From a virus (lineage: Duplodnaviria; Heunggongvirae; Uroviricota; Caudoviricetes), in IMG/VR virus record IMGVR_UViG_2548876867_000017, positions 1 through 35,219 of that record: a stretch of 35,219 nt of DNA; one strand, written 5' to 3'. This document shows, piece by piece, positions 11,047 to 25,050 of the stretch; within the stretch, counting starts at the first letter, position 1; every line of letters starts with the position of its first letter. Position numbers and translations under genes: made by a program. The notes under the pieces are model-generated. The model made no database searches. It saw only the letters and a list, made by a program, of their open reading frames with translations, and had not been told where the DNA came from.

Positions 11047-11817
11047 TTATTTCTTGAAGTCTTCGTACATTCTACGAAGGTTGTATTTTGGATGGCCTAA
11101 GCTAACCATGATTTGGCTCAATTTAACTGCGCCAGGTTTGCCGTTTTCAATCCACACACGACGGATTTCATCGTAATGCTGCCAACAGCCTTGACCTTTA
11201 GCAATGCGTATAGAATGTGTATATTTCTTGGTAGAGCTTTCTGGTCGCTTACGCCCTAGATGTGCTTTTCTAATCTTTTCGCGTGTTTCTTCTGATACAG
11301 GTTTACCATAACGGGGGTTATTTTCTCCACGAGAAGCAGCGGATAATTTAGCTAATATTTCTGGGTTGGTTATTTTCTTCCCTTTCATTGCACTAGGTTT
11401 ACCATAGCGATGGTTCTTTTCACCCATTCGAGATGCCGACATTTTAGCTCTAGATTCCGGTGTATGTTTTCTTCCGTAAAAAGGATGATTTTCACCACCA
11501 TCAAAACCACCGACACCACCAGGAGCAATATTAAGACATACACCACGCCCCCATTTTTCGCGTGCTGCCTCCACTAACAGAATTTCACATTCAAACGCTT
11601 CCTCGGCAGTATCAAACAATTTTGAGCGAACAACTTCAAATTCATATATCGGGGTTTCTGATTCTTTATTTTTACGCTTCATCATTTTAATAACTTTACC
11701 CGACCCCACATATCCATCATCTAGATTTGTAGTTGTTCTTTTTCCGACGTAATGATAGATTTTACCAGAGCGATTAGATTTAATAGTGGTGTGATAAACG
11801 TAATGGAATTTTTGCAT
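11047..11817 (-). CDS. GIY-YIG homing endonuclease with NUMOD3-type repeats
   Basis: N-terminal YVYH..GKIYHYVGK GIY-YIG-like motif; repeated NHPFYGRKHTPESRAKMS and NPRYGKPVSEETREKIRKAH modules typical of Seg/I-TevI-type endonucleases. Confidence 0.75.
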   Translation of the reverse strand: MQKFHYVYHTTIKSNRSGKIYHYVGKRTTTNLDDGYVGSGKVIKMMKRKNKESETPIYEFEVVRSKLFDTAEEAFECEILLVEAAREKWGRGVCLNIAPGGVGGFDGGENHPFYGRKHTPESRAKMSASRMGEKNHRYGKPSAMKGKKITNPEILAKLSAASRGENNPRYGKPVSEETREKIRKAHLGRKRPESSTKKYTHSIRIAKGQGCWQHYDEIRRVWIENGKPGAVKLSQIMVSLGHPKYNLRRMYEDFKK

Positions 11818-16330: not shown

Positions 16331-16350
16331 AGCCACCCCGAAGGATGGCT
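16331..16350 (-). terminator. intrinsic terminator after tail tube gene
   Basis: Hairpin with UUCG loop on the minus-strand transcript followed by a run of six U, 8 nt after the 16359 stop. Confidence 0.6.
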
Positions 16351-16358
16351 AGAGAATA

Positions 16359-16829
16359 TTAGACTTTCTGGAAAACAGCTTGTTTAACCGGAGCACCATC
16401 TACTACAAAGGTGAAGGTACGGCCTACTACAGCATCCTCACCACCAGTCATGGTAGTTTTAGACAGGAAGCCGTTATAAGCGATATGTACACCAGATTTT
16501 TTCGTAGCGTCGATGTAGTAAGCAATTTTAAGCTGTACGCGCTTACCGTCTTCGGTTGCTTTAATCAGTTTTTCGTGTACTTCGTTACCCGGCATGTAGT
16601 TGATCGAAAGTTCGATATCCGGTACAGACATACGACCAACCAGCTTACGGTTATACGGACCACCGAAGTTAGGAACATCGACAGTAGAACGTTCTACACC
16701 AGTTTCCGGGAAAGCCGCACATTCTGGAATTTCCAGATAGGTTTCAGCATCAAGGTCTTTATTGCTTACGTCTTCTTGCAGAAACAGACCAACGAGGCCA
16801 CCAGAAAAAATATCAAATTTAGTAGTCAT
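16359..16829 (-). CDS. major tail tube protein (lambda gpV N-domain-like)
   Basis: 156 aa; segment LSINYMPGNE..KRVQLKIAYY resembles the gpV tube-domain pattern; strong codon bias; directly upstream of G/T chaperones. Confidence 0.65.
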   Translation of the reverse strand: MTTKFDIFSGGLVGLFLQEDVSNKDLDAETYLEIPECAAFPETGVERSTVDVPNFGGPYNRKLVGRMSVPDIELSINYMPGNEVHEKLIKATEDGKRVQLKIAYYIDATKKSGVHIAYNGFLSKTTMTGGEDAVVGRTFTFVVDGAPVKQAVFQKV

Positions 16830-16883: not shown

Positions 16884-17186
16884 TTAGCGGTTGCTCAAAC
16901 GTCTATAACGAAGATGAGCGATCCCTCGATTTGTGCTAACTGTAATTACTGCCCCTTGCGGTGCAATACAAGAATGAATCTGTCCCCAATCATGACCCTT
17001 ATGGCTTCCAGAAACACAAAAACCATGAATAAACAATTCAGAGTCACCACCGCCACCACCGGAAGAATGAGCACAGAATGAAATAGTCCCGAAAGCGTCG
17101 GCTGTCCAACCGTTAGGAATATCAAACCATCCTTGATTTGCTTTACCCGCCCTATTCCCCAAAGCGCCATCTACCCAAAATGCCAT
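16884..17186 (-). CDS. glycine-rich small protein, paralog 3 of a tandem triplet
   Basis: 100 aa; shares WFDIPNGW motif and Gly-rich core with the two upstream ORFs; RBS AGGAG; start overlaps upstream stop. Confidence 0.55.
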   Translation of the reverse strand: MAFWVDGALGNRAGKANQGWFDIPNGWTADAFGTISFCAHSSGGGGGDSELFIHGFCVSGSHKGHDWGQIHSCIAPQGAVITVSTNRGIAHLRYRRLSNR

Positions 17187-17491
17187 TAGTGCATTCTCCT
17201 GAATTTGAAATAATGCAAACTACCTTTACCCAATGTAAAGCTAACGGTAGCACCAGCGCCAACTAAAGAACTAGCACCCCAACTCCCAGCATCACCAGCA
17301 TGATGGCCTGATTCAATCAATCCATTTACAGCCAATTCAGAATCAAGATCACCAGCACCGTTAATGGCTTCCATATGAGCAAAGACAATTCCGCATGAGT
17401 CAGTAACCCAACCGTTTGGGATATCAAAATATCCACCATTAGCCCAAATACTAATAGCATTAGACATTCTTTGATTTATCCATCCAGCCAT
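17186..17491 (-). CDS. glycine-rich small protein, paralog 2
   Basis: 101 aa; YFDIPNGW motif, Gly-rich, C-terminal YFKF; RBS GGAG. Confidence 0.55.
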   Translation of the reverse strand: MAGWINQRMSNAISIWANGGYFDIPNGWVTDSCGIVFAHMEAINGAGDLDSELAVNGLIESGHHAGDAGSWGASSLVGAGATVSFTLGKGSLHYFKFRRMH

Positions 17492-17493
17492 AA

Positions 17494-17790
17494 TTAAAAC
17501 TCCATGAATTTAAAATATTCAATACCACCATCACCGCCGTGTCCACAGGTGACAGTACAGCCAGCAGGAACAAAGGCATTTATAGTAGATCCCCAATTAT
17601 TCCCACCACGACGACGAGCAACGGTCAAACCATCTACGTTAATCACACCATCAGCCCATCCACCGCCAGCATTATGACGCATGACAGCGACACCAGCGCG
17701 AGCAGTACCATAGCCGTTAGGAATATCAAATACATGCCATTTTAAAGCATCGATTTTAGTATTAATTTCACTACTTACCCAATATCCCAT
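17494..17790 (-). CDS. glycine-rich small protein, paralog 1
   Basis: 98 aa; VFDIPNGY motif, Gly-rich, C-terminal YFKF; RBS AAGGA. Confidence 0.55.
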   Translation of the reverse strand: MGYWVSSEINTKIDALKWHVFDIPNGYGTARAGVAVMRHNAGGGWADGVINVDGLTVARRRGGNNWGSTINAFVPAGCTVTCGHGGDGGIEYFKFMEF

Positions 17791-17828
17791 ATAAGAATCC
17801 TTAGCGGAGATTTCTCCCCGCTTTCCAA

Positions 17829-20800
17829 TTACCCTAATTTAGCTTCAATTGCAGCAAGACGTTCACGAAGAAGTTTATTTTCTTCGCTCATTTCTTGGAC
17901 CGCTTTAATTAAAAGCGCGTTCACTGCGGAGTTTGAAATTGTTAAAATTTCTTCTGGGTTATCAAGACCACCAATTTTTGCGGTTTTAACAGCTTCCGGT
18001 AATACCTCTTGTAAATCCTGTGCGATAATACCAATCTCATGACCTATAACTTCTCGGTCATTAAGAGATTTAACTTTATCGTAGGTTTTAACTTTGAGTT
18101 TATTTACCTTATCCACCGCATTTTCTTCGTAATCTTCAACATTAATTTTCAGACGACCATCGGAACGAATATAAACATCGTTAAAGTTACCATTACCAGG
18201 AGAATAGAAAGTACCATCATGATGGAACTCGAATACAGCTTGAGGATGACCAGCCGCTGGCGATGCCTCCGCAGACCCAACACGAATAATTGCTTGCCCC
18301 CAATTTTGAGGAACACGACGCATACCAAAATCGACGGCAGTTGTATACCCTTGATTGGTGATTAAACTTCTTCCTTTAATAATTGGATAATAGCTATCTG
18401 GTCCAACATAGCCATGATCGACGAATATTGGCGCTTCTAAGCCCCATTGATCACCCCAACCTCCAGATTGGCTAGCAGTCCAACGTTCACCATGAACATA
18501 GAATCGAACGTTATTGACATGGGTCATTTCGACGCCTTTTGGACTTAGCGCGATATCCCCCGCGTTTGTAATGTTTACAGCAGCATTAGTAGCATAACTA
18601 TAGAACGCTAATCCATTATCAGCACCACCTTTACCGATATACCAGTTGTTATTATCGGCACAAGTACCCAGCAAATATATAGACGAATCGCCACTTTCGG
18701 CATTCATGATGATTGCATCAGATCCGCGATTAACTTTCAGTTTACCAAAGAAGGAGTTTTTAATGGTATTATCGCCTAATCGTTCAAATTCAGCTAAAAA
18801 TCCTTTTGAGTCACGAAGACTTAAAACGTTATTTCGACCTGTATTGCTTGCCCCCCAATGGACAAGTTCCATATAGTCCATAGATTGACGAGAACCAGCT
18901 TTAAAGAAAAGGTTGTCTTCAAGACGGGTACTACCATCAATTCCCAAATGCAAACAACGAGCAGTTTCAGTGCCACCTAAATCTAATCCACCTTCGGCGA
19001 AATCATAACTGAATGGTCTACGACTATTCCACGGTCCAAAGGAATCACCGAGATCTGTGGTAAGAATATGGAAACCAACACCATCATTTCTAAAAATTAA
19101 GCCATAATTGCCACCTTTAACAGCCAAACGAGCATTTTCAGATAATGCAACTTCGCTATTCATTACGATTTTCTGGCCTTTACCGCCAGTAATATGCAAT
19201 TCACCGTTTTCGATCAAGTTTATCGAGTTTTGACCGTTGTCGTTCCACCAAATAAAATCTTTGGTTGTTCCATCACCAAAACCAAACCAACCATTACGAA
19301 CATCTTGTCCAGTGCGATAATCCATGAAATTAAAATGGCTTGATTCGTTTGGTCCTCGACGAATATCAATACCAGAATTTCCACCAACACCACCATCCAA
19401 TGTTAATTTCTTGACATGTAACCCGGATGTTACTGTCAGCAATAATTCCTGGTTTGTATCTTCGTATCCAGTAGCAAGACGATATGCGTTATCATCAACT
19501 GTCTCATGCCAGATTGTAGCTGGTGCACAACTACGGAAGCGACGCAACATCTTTTTAGCATTTGTCGGTTGTTCGTTTAAATGCTCAATATCATATTGGC
19601 CTTGATGATTGCCAGCAAAATTTAACGTCCCACGGTTGCTAAAGTTATTGAACGATGAAATGTTAAGAGCATCAAAAATTTCATCTGCAACAGGTTTTTC
19701 ACCACCCAGATATTCAGGAGTATCCAACAGGTTTAAAGAAACACCACCGGAAGAAACTTGATATTCTGCTAAAACAAATCCTGTATGTGCACCGTAGTAA
19801 GCGTAAAGATCGTAATTATCACCATCGGTAGGAATTGCACAAAAATGTTGTTCGTGATACCAGATGCTATAATAAGCATTGAATACAACACCTTTCGGGC
19901 TATTGTTGCCGCATCGAATCACCAGTTCGATAATATTGGCTTGTCCATTCTGTCCGACGTTATAACCGTTGCCACCAACTAAGCGGATCTTAGCACTACG
20001 ACCGTGTTGCTGTGGCAGTGTTAAACTACCGAGTTTAAACCAACCGCCCTCGATCCCAAAATTAAGCGTCTTCTGGAACAGTCGGTCAATTTCTGCTTTC
20101 GAATATGCGCCAATTTCAGCCGGAGTAGGTTTATCACCTTCGTGATACATGCGGTGAGAATATGACAAGTTACCCAATTCATCGTAGCCGTATGTTTTTA
20201 CAGTCGGAACAACGTTAGAACCATATGTAAAATCAAAACCGCGAGAATGATTTAGACCGCTAGGATGTGGCACATGCAAAGCTAATGCCAAATGACCATC
20301 CATATCATTAGTACGGAATGCACCAAAATAATCAAGGTTACGCGCACTTGGATCATCAAAATAGTTTGCGGTCTTAGACAGCAAATAGCCATCAGTGTAA
20401 GTGTTTACGTGCTTTTTGATGTACTTGCCATCAGCAGATCCATCGGCTGCATCAATACGGCTTTCTAAGCGTGCCAGTTCGGAATCAGTGTAAGACTTGT
20501 TATTGTCAACTTTGCTATGAATTGCTGTATTTTTGGCCTCAACATCACGGGTTAATGCTGCGACGTTATCCGCTGCCTCCTGCTTATTGGCTGCAATCAC
20601 ACCAGCAAGATGATTGTAAGTGTCGGTTAACTGATTTCCCGCATAGGTTTTATTTGCTGCGATAGTGCGGTCAGTTTCTGCCTTAATCAAATCAACCTTG
20701 TCATTAATTGCTTTGTGATTGCTTGCGATGGTTGCATCAGTACGGGATTTAATATCATCAACTTTTTTATTGATGCGGGTGTCCAGTTCCTGTGTTGCTA

Positions 20801-21239
20801 CAGCAGCCGCATTTTTATTAGCATTGATAGTATCCGACAATTCAGCTTTAACACCAGCAAGGTCGGAAGCAGCTTTATTTTTATTGGCATCGATTGTCGC
20901 GTCGGTTTCGCGTTTAATTACATCAACTTTATTGTTAATTTCTGCGTGATTTGCTGCGATAGTAGAATCAGTAGTTTGTTTAATTTCATCTACTTTAGCG
21001 TGAATATTGCGGTCATTTACTACAATTGTGCTATCCAGTTCTTTTTTATTAGCATCAACTTTAGATTCTAGTGCCGCGTGAGTTTCAGGAGAAACAGAGA
21101 TTTGAACTACTTCATGATCTCGGTCTTTGGTAAAAATAACATGGTCTTTAAGGTTGATTGCTACCTCACCGACCTGTAATTGTTCCGGCGTTGGTTTTTT
21201 GCCAGAAACATTAGTTCGTTTAAATTGGATTGATTGCAT
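17829..21239 (-). CDS. side tail fiber protein with C-terminal intramolecular chaperone (peptidase S74-like) domain
   Basis: 1136 aa; N-terminal periodic KVDxIKxxTDxTIxANK repeats; C-terminal about 110 aa (SDGRLKINVEDYEENAVDKV...LRERLAAIEAKLG) matches the auto-cleaving chaperone domain of endosialidase / T5 L-shaped fiber type; RBS GAGGTG. Confidence 0.85.
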   Translation of the reverse strand: MQSIQFKRTNVSGKKPTPEQLQVGEVAINLKDHVIFTKDRDHEVVQISVSPETHAALESKVDANKKELDSTIVVNDRNIHAKVDEIKQTTDSTIAANHAEINNKVDVIKRETDATIDANKNKAASDLAGVKAELSDTINANKNAAAVATQELDTRINKKVDDIKSRTDATIASNHKAINDKVDLIKAETDRTIAANKTYAGNQLTDTYNHLAGVIAANKQEAADNVAALTRDVEAKNTAIHSKVDNNKSYTDSELARLESRIDAADGSADGKYIKKHVNTYTDGYLLSKTANYFDDPSARNLDYFGAFRTNDMDGHLALALHVPHPSGLNHSRGFDFTYGSNVVPTVKTYGYDELGNLSYSHRMYHEGDKPTPAEIGAYSKAEIDRLFQKTLNFGIEGGWFKLGSLTLPQQHGRSAKIRLVGGNGYNVGQNGQANIIELVIRCGNNSPKGVVFNAYYSIWYHEQHFCAIPTDGDNYDLYAYYGAHTGFVLAEYQVSSGGVSLNLLDTPEYLGGEKPVADEIFDALNISSFNNFSNRGTLNFAGNHQGQYDIEHLNEQPTNAKKMLRRFRSCAPATIWHETVDDNAYRLATGYEDTNQELLLTVTSGLHVKKLTLDGGVGGNSGIDIRRGPNESSHFNFMDYRTGQDVRNGWFGFGDGTTKDFIWWNDNGQNSINLIENGELHITGGKGQKIVMNSEVALSENARLAVKGGNYGLIFRNDGVGFHILTTDLGDSFGPWNSRRPFSYDFAEGGLDLGGTETARCLHLGIDGSTRLEDNLFFKAGSRQSMDYMELVHWGASNTGRNNVLSLRDSKGFLAEFERLGDNTIKNSFFGKLKVNRGSDAIIMNAESGDSSIYLLGTCADNNNWYIGKGGADNGLAFYSYATNAAVNITNAGDIALSPKGVEMTHVNNVRFYVHGERWTASQSGGWGDQWGLEAPIFVDHGYVGPDSYYPIIKGRSLITNQGYTTAVDFGMRRVPQNWGQAIIRVGSAEASPAAGHPQAVFEFHHDGTFYSPGNGNFNDVYIRSDGRLKINVEDYEENAVDKVNKLKVKTYDKVKSLNDREVIGHEIGIIAQDLQEVLPEAVKTAKIGGLDNPEEILTISNSAVNALLIKAVQEMSEENKLLRERLAAIEAKLG
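17832..18164 (-). other. predicted self-cleaving intramolecular chaperone domain of the tail fiber
   Basis: Begins at the conserved Ser of RSDGRLK (Ser codon at 18162-18164); expected to be removed after fiber trimerisation. Confidence 0.6.
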
Positions 21240-21312: not shown

Positions 21313-22146
21313 TCAGTATTCCCCGAAATCGATCCGGTCATGGATAGAAACGGCTTCAATCTCGGCTGGTGTCGGTTTTTCTTCCGTGGAATACACTTTC
21401 ACCCATCCAGAATTACCGTCTTTCTGGACTGTGCGAACTCGTAAACGTGGTGCGCCGGAAGCGGTGCAAGTTAATTGCCATCCACCATCTTCATTAGGTT
21501 GAACGTGAATTAGTGAAGTATCAGCACTAAATGGGTTAGATGCGCTCGATCCCTGATAAGTTACGAAACGGTTTCCGGCTAATGCTTCGCTATCAATCGG
21601 ACCCGTGAATGGATTTACACCAGCACCCAAACCAAAATCACCTTGACGTAAGATCCGGCCTTCGGTAGCAATACCGCGATCTAGAATCCCGCCATCAGGT
21701 TCTAATTTAAACTCGATTGTAGTAACTTTGTTATCACCGGATTTTGTTTTATGTGACGAGACATAAGCGTCAAAAATGACGTAGTAACCTGTGTTAGCAG
21801 CACTATAGCCAGAGTTCACAACATAGAACATACGAAAGCGTAAAGGAGTTTTATCATTCACCGCTTTCATCAACATGTCTTGATGTTCGTCATCCAGAAC
21901 ACGGTTTACTACTAACGTAGTTGATTCAAGTTTACGATAGCCAGCAAGTTTACCCGTAGCGTCCTGATCATACTCTTCTAACGTCTGGATCTCTGTGGAT
22001 TCGGTTAGCGTAGGGAATGCTGCGACGTTCTCGATAGGACTAAATGCAGGATCGAAAAAGTCCGGCTGGTTATCCACCATAGTAGACACGGAGACTTCAA
22101 CATGCGACCCCGTGAAAATGTCTAAGTTATCTTGTGTAATATTCAT
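21313..22146 (-). CDS. structural protein with fiber-like KPTPAEI motif
   Basis: 277 aa; C-terminal EEKPTPAEIEAVS resembles GDKPTPAEIGAYS in the tail fiber; RBS AAGGGGT. Confidence 0.5.
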   Translation of the reverse strand: MNITQDNLDIFTGSHVEVSVSTMVDNQPDFFDPAFSPIENVAAFPTLTESTEIQTLEEYDQDATGKLAGYRKLESTTLVVNRVLDDEHQDMLMKAVNDKTPLRFRMFYVVNSGYSAANTGYYVIFDAYVSSHKTKSGDNKVTTIEFKLEPDGGILDRGIATEGRILRQGDFGLGAGVNPFTGPIDSEALAGNRFVTYQGSSASNPFSADTSLIHVQPNEDGGWQLTCTASGAPRLRVRTVQKDGNSGWVKVYSTEEKPTPAEIEAVSIHDRIDFGEY

Positions 22147-23043: not shown

Positions 23044-25050
23044 TCATTCAGCGGAGATGTGAAGAACTTTCAGCGCTTCCGGCTGGGTTACAACGTAATC
23101 CAGATCTACCCAGATACGCGGAACGATAGCAGACTGTGCGCGGTAGGTAGTGTCATCAATGTCAAGTTCCAGACCACCCCATTCACCGATGGTAATAGCG
23201 TCGAACGATCCCAGAACGATGTGGTCTACCGGAATAACACCAGAAGTAACTACGTCGTAACCAGCCAGTTTACCGTTTTCGATGATATAACCGGAAACGC
23301 CGTTATCTTTCAGGGTAGATTCCAGTTCAGCAGCAGTTGCACCGCTCATCGCAAACTTGATCGCCTGAGCAGGAACGCCAGCGTCCGTGAGCTTTGCAAT
23401 CTCCTTGAGGAAGTCTTTATAAGAGAAAGCAGCTTTCTTCTCTACGCGACCAGCATCTACCAGTTGTTTAATCACACCAGCCGGACCACGAGCATTTTCT
23501 TTGTCGGACAGAATCAGTTGTTCCAGTTTGATGCGAACAGCCTGGTTAATGTGATCAGTGATCAGGGTAGCGATGCCGGGTACGGTCTTGAGGCTAGCTC
23601 TGCTGATCGGATTCCCACCAGCAAACGTCTTAGGAGCCATTTTCACGTTTGCAAATTCAGCTTTACCTTCCGGCGCAGCACCGTTTTCATCAACGAAGCC
23701 GAAAGATTCAACGCTGGAAGCGGTCATTTTAGGAATAGCGGTCGGTGAAGTCAGACCAGACAGGACTTTCACACCAAGACGACCCAGAACGGATTCCGGC
23801 AACAGCATCGCTACATAGGAATCATTCAGCAGTTTTTCGTCGGTTACAGCGGTCAGAGTAGCTTTGGTGTTACCATCAGCAGCAGCACGCATAGCAGCAG
23901 TCGGAACGAATACAGAGCCACCGCGAGCAGCACGACCACGCTGCATAGTTGCAGTAGCAGCCATTGCAGAAAACTCGGCTTCGTGAGCACCCAGAGCTTC
24001 ACCATCTACCAGAGAGCGAATTACGTTGTTCAGGTCAAAAGTTTTTTCCATTTTAGAGTCCTTAATTTGTTGTTCGTTATTACGTTGAGCATTGGTAATG
24101 TTATTTAGTGCCTTAGTGCGGAATGCTTCCGGCGTCATATCTTTAATTGCCAATGCGCGTTCTAATTCTTCGTCGTTAATATTTAACTCACGAGCGATTG
24201 CTCGGATTTCTTCTTCGTCTTCTTCGGAACGTTCAGCCACTTCTTCGATTTTTTCTTCTTCAACCGGAGCAGCTTCACGTTCTTCTTTTACTTCTTCTGT
24301 TTCCCGAACAGTTGAACTATCATCATCAACACTTTCAGGATGTTCAGCGTCTTTTCCGTCTTCGAGATTTTCATCTTCTTTATTCTCTTCAACTTGGCGC
24401 TCTTGAGTTTCTTCTACTTCCGATTCTTTATTTTCTTCTACCGGAGTTTCTTCAACCTGAGCGGATTCTTGTTCTTCTTTGATTTCTTCAATTTGTTCTT
24501 TAGTCATATCGCGTTTAGCCTCCAAATTAACTGTGATAGTATTTAGAGAGCGATTTAAACCGACCGAATCGTCCGCCGGGACCGTAACAAAACTTAATTC
24601 GAAAGGAACAAACTTAGTAACAATCAATTGTCCTTTGGCATAATCGATGTGATATTCTTTAATGTCATAGCCGACAGAAATTTTTTCCATCGTACCTTCA
24701 ATGACCTTATTACGAATATCATTAGCCAAAGTGCCATGCTTAGAGAATCTAACGGTCGCACGGCCTACTTTATCCGCATCGATTCGAGCGTTACAAACGA
24801 CACCTAAATGATTATCGAAATTATGATTAAACAGCAACGGAGCGTTATTATTCAGACGAGACAGATCAACCGCTTCCGGTGTATGTATCAGAATTTCATC
24901 TAATACCACCATTTCTTGATTTTGCTCATCCCAGAATTGGCGCTGATAAGGCTGTTCACTGGAGAAAGCAATTTCAAATTCGTATTGATCGTTATGCCCT
25001 TCGTTAATAACTCCACCGTAACCGTTAAGTTCGCGGCGAAATTTAAGCAT
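23044..25050 (-). CDS. fused prohead protease - scaffold-like linker - major capsid protein (HK97 fold)
   Basis: 668 aa; N-terminus has HK97-type protease motifs (APLLFNHNFDNHLGVV, ISVGYDI, ELSFVTVPADDSV); acidic Glu-rich middle; C-terminal about 350 aa with capsid-like pattern and strong codon bias; RBS AAAGGTGA. Confidence 0.8.
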   Translation of the reverse strand: MLKFRRELNGYGGVINEGHNDQYEFEIAFSSEQPYQRQFWDEQNQEMVVLDEILIHTPEAVDLSRLNNNAPLLFNHNFDNHLGVVCNARIDADKVGRATVRFSKHGTLANDIRNKVIEGTMEKISVGYDIKEYHIDYAKGQLIVTKFVPFELSFVTVPADDSVGLNRSLNTITVNLEAKRDMTKEQIEEIKEEQESAQVEETPVEENKESEVEETQERQVEENKEDENLEDGKDAEHPESVDDDSSTVRETEEVKEEREAAPVEEEKIEEVAERSEEDEEEIRAIARELNINDEELERALAIKDMTPEAFRTKALNNITNAQRNNEQQIKDSKMEKTFDLNNVIRSLVDGEALGAHEAEFSAMAATATMQRGRAARGGSVFVPTAAMRAAADGNTKATLTAVTDEKLLNDSYVAMLLPESVLGRLGVKVLSGLTSPTAIPKMTASSVESFGFVDENGAAPEGKAEFANVKMAPKTFAGGNPISRASLKTVPGIATLITDHINQAVRIKLEQLILSDKENARGPAGVIKQLVDAGRVEKKAAFSYKDFLKEIAKLTDAGVPAQAIKFAMSGATAAELESTLKDNGVSGYIIENGKLAGYDVVTSGVIPVDHIVLGSFDAITIGEWGGLELDIDDTTYRAQSAIVPRIWVDLDYVVTQPEALKVLHISAE

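Follow-up and report, generated by a model that had tools for sequence, protein, structure and literature searches.

Receptor-binding proteins set the host range of phages, and efforts to predict or engineer host range are aimed mainly at them. For T-even-type fibres, the distal receptor-binding solutions characterised so far are gp38 and the tip of T4-type gp37, and knobs of other kinds are also known, such as P5 of PRD1, which is TNF-like. Small genes directly downstream of a fibre gene can also encode fibre-adjacent chaperones, as do T4 gp38 and the Tfa genes of lambda and Mu, and some fibre assembly chaperones stay bound to the tip. The separately encoded fibre-tip cap is an established arrangement in the form of gp38. 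In S16 gp38, three tryptophans at the helix apices of the attachment domain fill three equivalent pockets of the gp37 trimer (PMC6851490), and gp38 is a virion adhesin that binds the mature tip (PMC9569957). Current receptor prediction is keyed on gp38 and the T4-type gp37 tip (PMC12032242; bioRxiv 10.64898/2026.04.02.716166).

Here we describe a second, unrelated and previously unannotated occupant of the gp38 slot, which consists of three small paralogous genes (A, B and C, together the trio). The window, that is, the whole stretch of 35,219 nucleotides analysed (IMG/VR record IMGVR_UViG_2548876867_000017), is a siphovirus-type E. coli prophage. Its minus strand carries, in order, terminase, portal, a protease-capsid fusion, ORFs of 96 aa and 140/167 aa, and a 277-aa protein with a tail-tube-like N-terminal half; these are followed by a 1136-aa fibre, the trio, a 156-aa tail tube gene and a strong terminator, and then by the G/T tail chaperones, the tape measure, the distal tail protein and a J-like tip. 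The features at and around the trio are as follows.

18165..21239, minus strand: mature part of the fibre (residues 1-1025 of 1136 aa), a gp34/gp37-like shaft and tip with the end …GNGNFNDVYIR; proposed docking partner of the trio
17829..18164, minus strand: C-terminal intramolecular chaperone of the fibre (Peptidase_S74; PF13884, E = 4.6e-14), beginning SDGRLK; release by self-cleavage predicted
17803..17822, minus strand: GC-rich hairpin with an 8-bp stem and a GAAA loop, located after the stop codon of the fibre gene and ahead of the Shine-Dalgarno sequence of ORF A; U-tract absent
17494-17790, minus strand: ORF A, 98 aa, first and most variable paralogue; Trp-tipped N-terminal helix, then C1q/TNF-like jelly roll (both predicted)
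17186-17491, minus strand: ORF B, 101 aa, second paralogue; predicted architecture as in ORF A
16884-17186, minus strand: ORF C, 100 aa, third and most conserved paralogue
16359..16829, minus strand: lambda-type tail tube gene, the next gene in the trio operon (PHROG 158, E = 1.6e-19; Pfam Phage_TTP_12)
16331-16350, after the tail tube gene: strong intrinsic terminator

The fibre has the Pfam domains Gp34_trimer and gp37_trimer and matches PHROG 1699, 'long tail fiber distal subunit'; its cleavage motif reads …NDVYIR|SDGRLK, and its chaperone is alignable to that of S16 gp37 (PDB 6F45). The initial annotation of this DNA had described three minus-strand ORFs of 98, 101 and 100 aa between a fibre gene and a tail tube gene, each with its own Shine-Dalgarno sequence, and all of this was confirmed, with the 1136-aa S74 fibre upstream, the lambda-type tube gene downstream, and AAGGA, GGAG and AGGAG preceding the ATG of A, B and C by 7, 8 and 9 nt, respectively. 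Only 2 nt separate the stop codon of A from the start of B, and the stop of B overlaps the start of C in TAATG. The N-termini (MGYW in A, MAGW in B and MAFW in C), the FDIPNG(Y/W) motif of the trio and the glycine-rich core are as had been reported, with glycine making up 16-18% of the residues of the three proteins, in short loops. A YFKF ending ascribed to two of them was found close to the C-terminus of A (…YFKFMEF) and B (…YFKFRRMH) but not at the very end. Orthologues of ORF B from Salmonella and from metagenomes carry N-terminal extensions ahead of the conserved G-W.

A, B and C can be aligned end to end at 26-35% identity, with W4, FDIPNG and several glycines in common, and Smith-Waterman scores among them were 104-148 versus 32 +/- 6 for 500 shuffles (z = 12.5-19.5). 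When orthologues from seven diverged loci were compared, they grouped by type and not by locus: all A sequences fell into one clean clade, and B and C likewise sorted by type, apart from two long branches. Mean identity was 33-45% within types and 26% between types. This clustering indicates that the triplication predates the divergence of these loci and that the three types have been kept in a fixed order. Between the window and five other loci, dN/dS was 0.04-0.34 for every trio gene (0.07-0.20 for ORF C), which indicates that A, B and C are all expressed proteins under purifying selection. On these sequence comparisons, the three are old paralogues, as the initial annotation had proposed.

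The family is small. A word-indexed search of 5.8 billion proteins returned 38 clusters, which come without exception from E. coli, Shigella or Salmonella and are all labelled 'hypothetical', and an exhaustive HMM search of 1.84 billion representatives gave 18 matches, about 15 of them genuine. On reading, P0048 (2552 aa) and P0056 (1118 aa) proved to be repeat-protein artefacts, and P0053 (2715 aa, with a single matched stretch of 38 residues) is assumed to be another. Among 5,426 complete genomes of E. coli, 22 carry the trio, as do 3 of 50,697 phage records, while its profile had no match in 185,579 species-representative genomes; a one-genome-per-species scan gave no match for the tail tube protein. 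Neither A, B nor C matched a family in Pfam, PHROGs, NCBIfam or PADLOC, matches to CAF17 and phrog_12384 being noise, and searches of the literature on Krischvirus and gp38, UPWr_E1, KFS-EC and C1q-like tail fibres turned up no account of these genes.

At every locus found, on three unrelated phage backbones, the order is S74 fibre, A, B, C. These loci comprise E. coli prophages (L005-L008, L022-L029), a Salmonella prophage (L004), four diverged metagenomic loci (L011, L012, L013-15 and L016/17), and the RB49-like, T4-type Krischvirus myoviruses G37-3, G2248 and UPWr_E1, in which the trio lies between gp37 and the holin region. The gene that follows varies and may be the tail tube gene, the holin region or a second fibre, the last being the case at L013, where an unrelated fibre adjoins the trio downstream. 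A comparison of copy number across genomes, which the initial annotation had suggested, showed that complete diverged loci, even at identities as low as about 25-30%, hold a single copy each of A, B and C in fixed order, with the stop codon of one gene overlapping or adjoining the start of the next. Prophages of the window's family that have no trio also exist, and the fibres of these cap-less relatives have a related tip (72-86% identical). In KFS-EC, recorded as an isolated phage, a deletion has fused A to C with a frameshift, and this broken trio indicates that the genes are not always essential. Judging from KFS-EC and the cap-less relatives, the trio can be dispensable.

AlphaFold2 models built with the family alignment reached a pLDDT of 82.8 for A and 86.1 for B. 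Both consist of an N-terminal helix of low confidence (residues 3-12 in A and 2-13 in B) and a compact beta sandwich of 7-8 strands (pLDDT about 90-97); the low confidence of the helix in monomer models suggests that it needs a partner. W4 marks the start of the helix and is the only conserved residue of the N-terminal segment, although certain diverged orthologues of A and C have L, N, Q, M or Y, in part polar residues, in its place. Structural searches of the models, another comparison suggested at the outset, gave Foldseek matches among the predicted viral structures of BFVD with E = 1.6e-4 to 1e-2 and TM up to 0.70, the named ones mostly annotated tail fibres, C1q-domain or collagen-repeat proteins; the matches include proteins of Edwardsiella phages MSW-3 and eiAU and of Acinetobacter phage Acj61. 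The predicted fold of the trio proteins is probably a C1q/TNF-like jelly roll. Against the Pfam profiles for C1q (PF00386) and TNF (PF00229), A and B had no match at E <= 1 and C gave noise only, and when PDB sequences were searched with the family profile, nothing came back but noise, designed 'Pizza' propeller proteins included. The trio domains are not fused to a stalk and, with about 80 residues and about 8 strands, are smaller than known C1q/TNF heads (C1q A/B/C, C1QL1, collagen VIII NC1, adiponectin, TNF ligands and Bacillus BclA), in which about 130 residues form 10 strands. The C-terminal knobs of phage fibres and spikes share the predicted fold class and the proposed distal receptor-binding role. 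However, they apparently lie within longer fibre polypeptides (170-1034 aa for the targets matched), and a knob inside a long fibre polypeptide would form a homotrimer, whereas the trio is encoded separately and three times over and would need non-covalent docking.

Since the strands of the sandwich alternate in direction, its loops alternate between two poles, and these differ in conservation. One pole holds FDIPNGW (20-27), xNG (53-54) and VPxG (75-78), with an entropy of 0.7-1.4 bits, and the other holds loops 41-44, 64-67 and 87-88, all glycine-rich, with an entropy of about 2.1 bits. From the topology of the models, the conserved pole would adjoin the termini. Near-identical prophages differ mainly around the variable loops, and most of all in A.

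The slot that the trio occupies can hold gp38 instead. The Krischvirus MIZ4 has a 260-aa gp38 of the T2/S16 type, with its glycine-rich motifs, where G37-3, G2248 and UPWr_E1 have the trio, and the complete G37-3 genome and the window both lack a gp38 homologue by tblastn. In E. coli ETEC4085, a member of the prophage family, a gp38 takes up the site of A, B and the 5' portion of C; where the two can be aligned (residues 38-260), it is about 97% identical to gp38 of PP01 (PDB 9v85). The 3' remnant of C lies beside this gp38, fused to the opening codons of a Krischvirus ORF, a recombination scar showing that trio and gp38 were directly exchanged. Both in Krischvirus and in the prophage family, the two are interchangeable at this position.

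Like the trio, gp38 of the T2/S16/RB49 type (PHROG 2056/1121; PDB 6F45, 9v85) is encoded directly after a gp37-type S74 fibre, and both have glycine-rich variable segments on an otherwise conserved scaffold. One gp38 chain of about 260 aa presents three Trp-tipped helices, whereas the three trio chains of about 100 aa have one predicted Trp-tipped helix each. Local motifs are also alike, with PWVGSS, NWASLA and FWISSF in gp38 and YWVSSE, GWINQR and FWVDGA/FWVSSI in the trio. The initial annotation had pointed to the glycine-rich motifs of T-even gp38-type adhesins as a possible link, and this did not hold up: in hhalign, the trio profile was assigned a probability of 0.2% against the gp38 alignment; PHROG 2056/1121 did not match the trio but recovered the prophage gp38 proteins at 1e-109 and 2e-33; and the trio models are ordinary beta sandwiches of predicted C1q/TNF-like type, whereas gp38 combines a beta-helix with a polyglycine-II sandwich. 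With neither sequence homology nor the polyglycine-II fold found, the trio was placed outside the gp38 family.

Fibre comparisons locate the exchanged unit. Over the 200 residues that precede the cleavage motif, the window is 94-97% identical to the gp38-bearing MIZ4 and ETEC4085, but their chaperone domains are only 58% identical to that of the window. For MIZ4 alone the values are 94% for the tip and 58% for the chaperone, and for the trio-bearing G37-3 they are reversed, with 28% for the tip and 91% for the chaperone; trio-bearing loci altogether have chaperones 81-100% identical to that of the window. The cap type hence follows the chaperone and not the tip, which makes the chaperone plus the cap gene or genes the exchanged unit, with a breakpoint at the conserved cleavage motif. 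Across E. coli, Salmonella and Krischvirus, the trio is found with at least three mature tip types whose only common feature is the end …(N/R)D(V/I)YIR, and at the diverged metagenomic trio loci the fibres end in DVQVR, DIMMR, NYFLR or DVYYR. Cap-less fibres have Q or H at the Y position of …DVYIR. As a marker of cap-accepting tips, this tyrosine was rejected because the trio-bearing L011 has …DVQVR, and the C-terminal tail of the chaperone was likewise discarded as an indicator of cap type, given the MIZ4-like tail at the Salmonella trio locus.

As judged from this co-variation, the partner of the trio could be the chaperone itself. An alternative reading builds on it: the trio proteins would act in the infected cell as non-structural assembly factors alongside the S74 chaperone, for instance by shielding the hydrophobic end that cleavage exposes or by aiding trimer registration, and would be absent from the virion. 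Fibre-adjacent chaperones such as T4 gp38 and the Tfa of lambda and Mu (and of P2) offer precedents, being likewise small genes directly downstream of a fibre gene, and the apparent dispensability of the trio in KFS-EC and the cap-less prophages would fit. Nonetheless, we regard this reading as unlikely. The virion adhesin gp38 tracks the chaperone in the same way and yet binds the mature tip, so physical linkage can explain the co-variation of trio and chaperone. Moreover, the fibre already has its own intramolecular chaperone, no match to Tfa/Caudo_TAP or to the T4 gp38 family was obtained for the trio in Pfam, PHROG or NCBIfam, and the predicted knob-type fold with its variable distal loops better fits a surface-exposed binding module.

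A functional tie between the trio and the fibre tip is, in our assessment, probable. The initial annotation had suggested fibre-tip adhesins or accessory factors, and the constant S74 fibre and the gp38 slot lend this strong contextual support, but the cap-less fibres and KFS-EC show that the trio is not universally required. As to the form of the tie, we give about an even chance to a distal cap in which A, B and C, in a ratio of 1:1:1, form a C1q/TNF-like heterotrimer on the cleaved fibre tip and functionally replace the unrelated gp38. This knob was proposed because each chain would have one Trp helix, the conserved paralogues number exactly three, their genes are translationally coupled and proteins of the predicted fold usually form trimers. 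That three paralogues are conserved in one order suggests that the assembly would be threefold, and the three orthogroups, their fixed order and their tight coupling in every complete diverged locus fit an obligate 1:1:1 stoichiometry.

In the proposed mechanism, A, B and C would be structural accessory proteins of the fibre encoded directly upstream, and once the S74 chaperone has cut itself off, an A1B1C1 knob would cap the distal end of the trimeric fibre within the virion. Each chain would contribute one amphipathic N-terminal helix, which starts with M-A/G-aromatic-W (Trp or another hydrophobic residue), and these helices would fill three symmetry-related pockets at the base of the fibre, as the three Trp-tipped helices of gp38 do. 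The conserved pole (FDIPNGW, xNG, VPxG) would point towards the fibre and the adjoining chains, leaving the variable glycine-rich loops of the other pole to make up the surface that binds the receptor. Recombination of the chaperone together with the cap genes between phages would swap trio for gp38 and so change host range. Several observations count against this model, namely the variety of mature tips with which the trio occurs, the co-variation of cap type with the chaperone, the broken trio of KFS-EC and the replacement of W4 in diverged orthologues. A stronger form, to which we incline somewhat less, holds that the trio is an obligate A1B1C1 heterotrimer, the first tip made of three different paralogous chains, and an exchangeable host-range cassette together with the self-cleaving chaperone. 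To our knowledge, no earlier phage receptor-binding tip is built from three different paralogous chains. In this form, gp38 and the trio would reconcile a trimeric fibre with an asymmetric receptor in opposite ways, gp38 with one chain that mimics threefold symmetry and the trio with three chains that break it.

The same slot and fibre linkage would fit equally well if each paralogue formed its own cap, as a homotrimer or monomer, giving virions with mixed tips, several specificities and a broader host range. C1q/TNF-type domains, the fold predicted here, are usually homotrimeric, and among close relatives A is far more variable than B and C, as if A evolved independently. However, separate caps would be expected to vary in copy number and to be shuffled, and what was seen is one A, one B and one C in order at every complete locus; translational coupling also favours equimolar synthesis. 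We therefore hold separate caps to be improbable and prefer the heterotrimeric cap.

It is much more doubtful that the trio is a cargo ('moron') module, merely fibre-adjacent, that serves superinfection exclusion, receptor masking, defence or anti-defence. The receptor-blocking genes llp of T5 and cor do adjoin receptor-binding genes, and the trio family is narrow and unannotated. Nevertheless, A, B and C contain no transmembrane or signal segment (maximum Kyte-Doolittle over 19 residues 0.64-0.90) and no hydrophobic leader or lipobox at their N-termini, and PADLOC returned no match. The trio is also present in the strictly lytic Krischvirus, within the late fibre operon; its predicted fold is that of a fibre knob; and it replaces an adhesin where cargo would be added to one.

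A role as neck, tail-terminator or tail-completion proteins of a siphovirus, which would suit three genes of about 100 aa each directly upstream of a tube gene in a genome with few recognisable connectors (only the 96-aa, 140/167-aa and 277-aa ORFs lie between capsid and fibre), is effectively excluded, as the same genes occur in the long-tail-fibre locus of T4-type myoviruses that own neck genes, the L013 trio lies beside a second fibre and no tube, some prophages of the same family lack the trio, and, in keeping with the initial annotation, no homology to such proteins was found (no adaptor, stopper or terminator family match in Pfam, PHROG or NCBIfam).

The trio is thus most likely a new three-chain fibre-tip knob that helps to decide which bacteria the phage attacks. 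Its genes are carried by the therapeutic-type Krischvirus isolates G37-3, G2248 and UPWr_E1 and are everywhere labelled 'hypothetical protein'. If the trio is an adhesin, it would explain host recognition by Krischviruses that have no gp38, add a compact scaffold of a new kind (about 3 x 100 aa) with which phages could be retargeted, and be a bacterial-virus example of a heterotrimeric C1q/TNF-like head, adding a new form to the separately encoded fibre-tip cap represented by gp38.

The hairpin between the fibre stop codon and ORF A (17803..17822) has a predicted RNA folding energy of -16 kcal/mol (z = -1.97), and in phage G2248 the annotation places a terminator at the equivalent site. The hairpin may act in processing, in stability or in partial termination.

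Comparison of the window with loci L001, L009 and L030-L033 showed that the identity of the S74 chaperone, the C-terminal domain of the fibre protein (window 17829-18164, minus strand), goes with the cassette encoded downstream of it rather than with the mature fibre tip. The chaperone was 81-100% identical to that of the window in loci carrying the trio of paralogous genes A, B and C, 64-69% identical in loci where the T2/S16-type adhesin gp38 occupies the slot, and 53-60% identical in cap-less loci, which have neither. The recombination breakpoint seems to fall at the conserved cleavage motif NDVYIR|SDxRLKIN.

A scar of such exchange, in which a T4-type phage and a siphovirus-type prophage swapped cassettes, is preserved in E. 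coli ETEC4085 (L030, 1530-1860; protein P0029). There the prophage gp38 is followed by a 3' remnant of ORF C that is joined to the opening codons (MVYNI…) of a 79-aa ORF, one that in Krischvirus (RB49-like T4-type myoviruses) comes after the cap slot. The trio is also disrupted in the record of phage KFS-EC (L003, 4838-5267), in which the lone small ORF 3' of gp37 is a deletion fusion joining residues 1 to ~85 of A to the middle of C, followed by a frameshift that leaves the remainder of C in a different frame. This record is the deposited genome of an isolated phage; either the trio is truly broken in it or the assembly contains an error.

A third type of cap within the prophage family is represented by a 168-aa "tail fiber adhesin" (PHROG 1121) in E. 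coli 2017.18.04CC (L031, 1018-1524). Its N-terminus resembles the gp38 attachment region, its C-terminal domain is without glycine-rich motifs, and its gene follows the tube gene instead of preceding it.

In and around the fibre and trio, the window has the following features:
21313-22146, minus strand: 277-aa tube-like protein
17803-17822, minus strand: GC-rich hairpin with no U-tract, separating the stop codon of the fibre gene from ORF A
16359-16829: 156-aa tail tube gene
16331-16350, minus strand: strong intrinsic terminator that immediately follows the tube gene

Both the N-terminal 154 residues of the 277-aa protein and the 156-aa tube gene match PHROG 158 ("major tail protein"), and therefore two tube-like paralogues bracket the fibre and trio cassette. 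Beyond its tube-like part, the 277-aa protein carries a C-terminal extension of ~120 aa, and it might form a ring for fibre attachment. In the trio-bearing Krischvirus phage G2248, the hairpin equivalent to that at 17803-17822 is annotated as a terminator.

Fibre residues ~829-900 (window 18540-18755, minus strand) resemble the tip region of gp17, the tail fibre of phage T7 (E about 1e-3 to PDB 7boz and 4a0t/4a0u), an example of how mosaic the fibre is. Elsewhere, the run of tail-tip genes is interrupted by the inserted gene of a 256-aa homing endonuclease (window 11047-11817, minus strand; PHROG 314, E = 5e-32). In loci L004-L008, from Salmonella and E. coli prophages, a single protein combines prohead protease (Peptidase_S78) and major capsid domains, and the corresponding position here is occupied by a 668-aa gene (window 23044-25050, minus strand).
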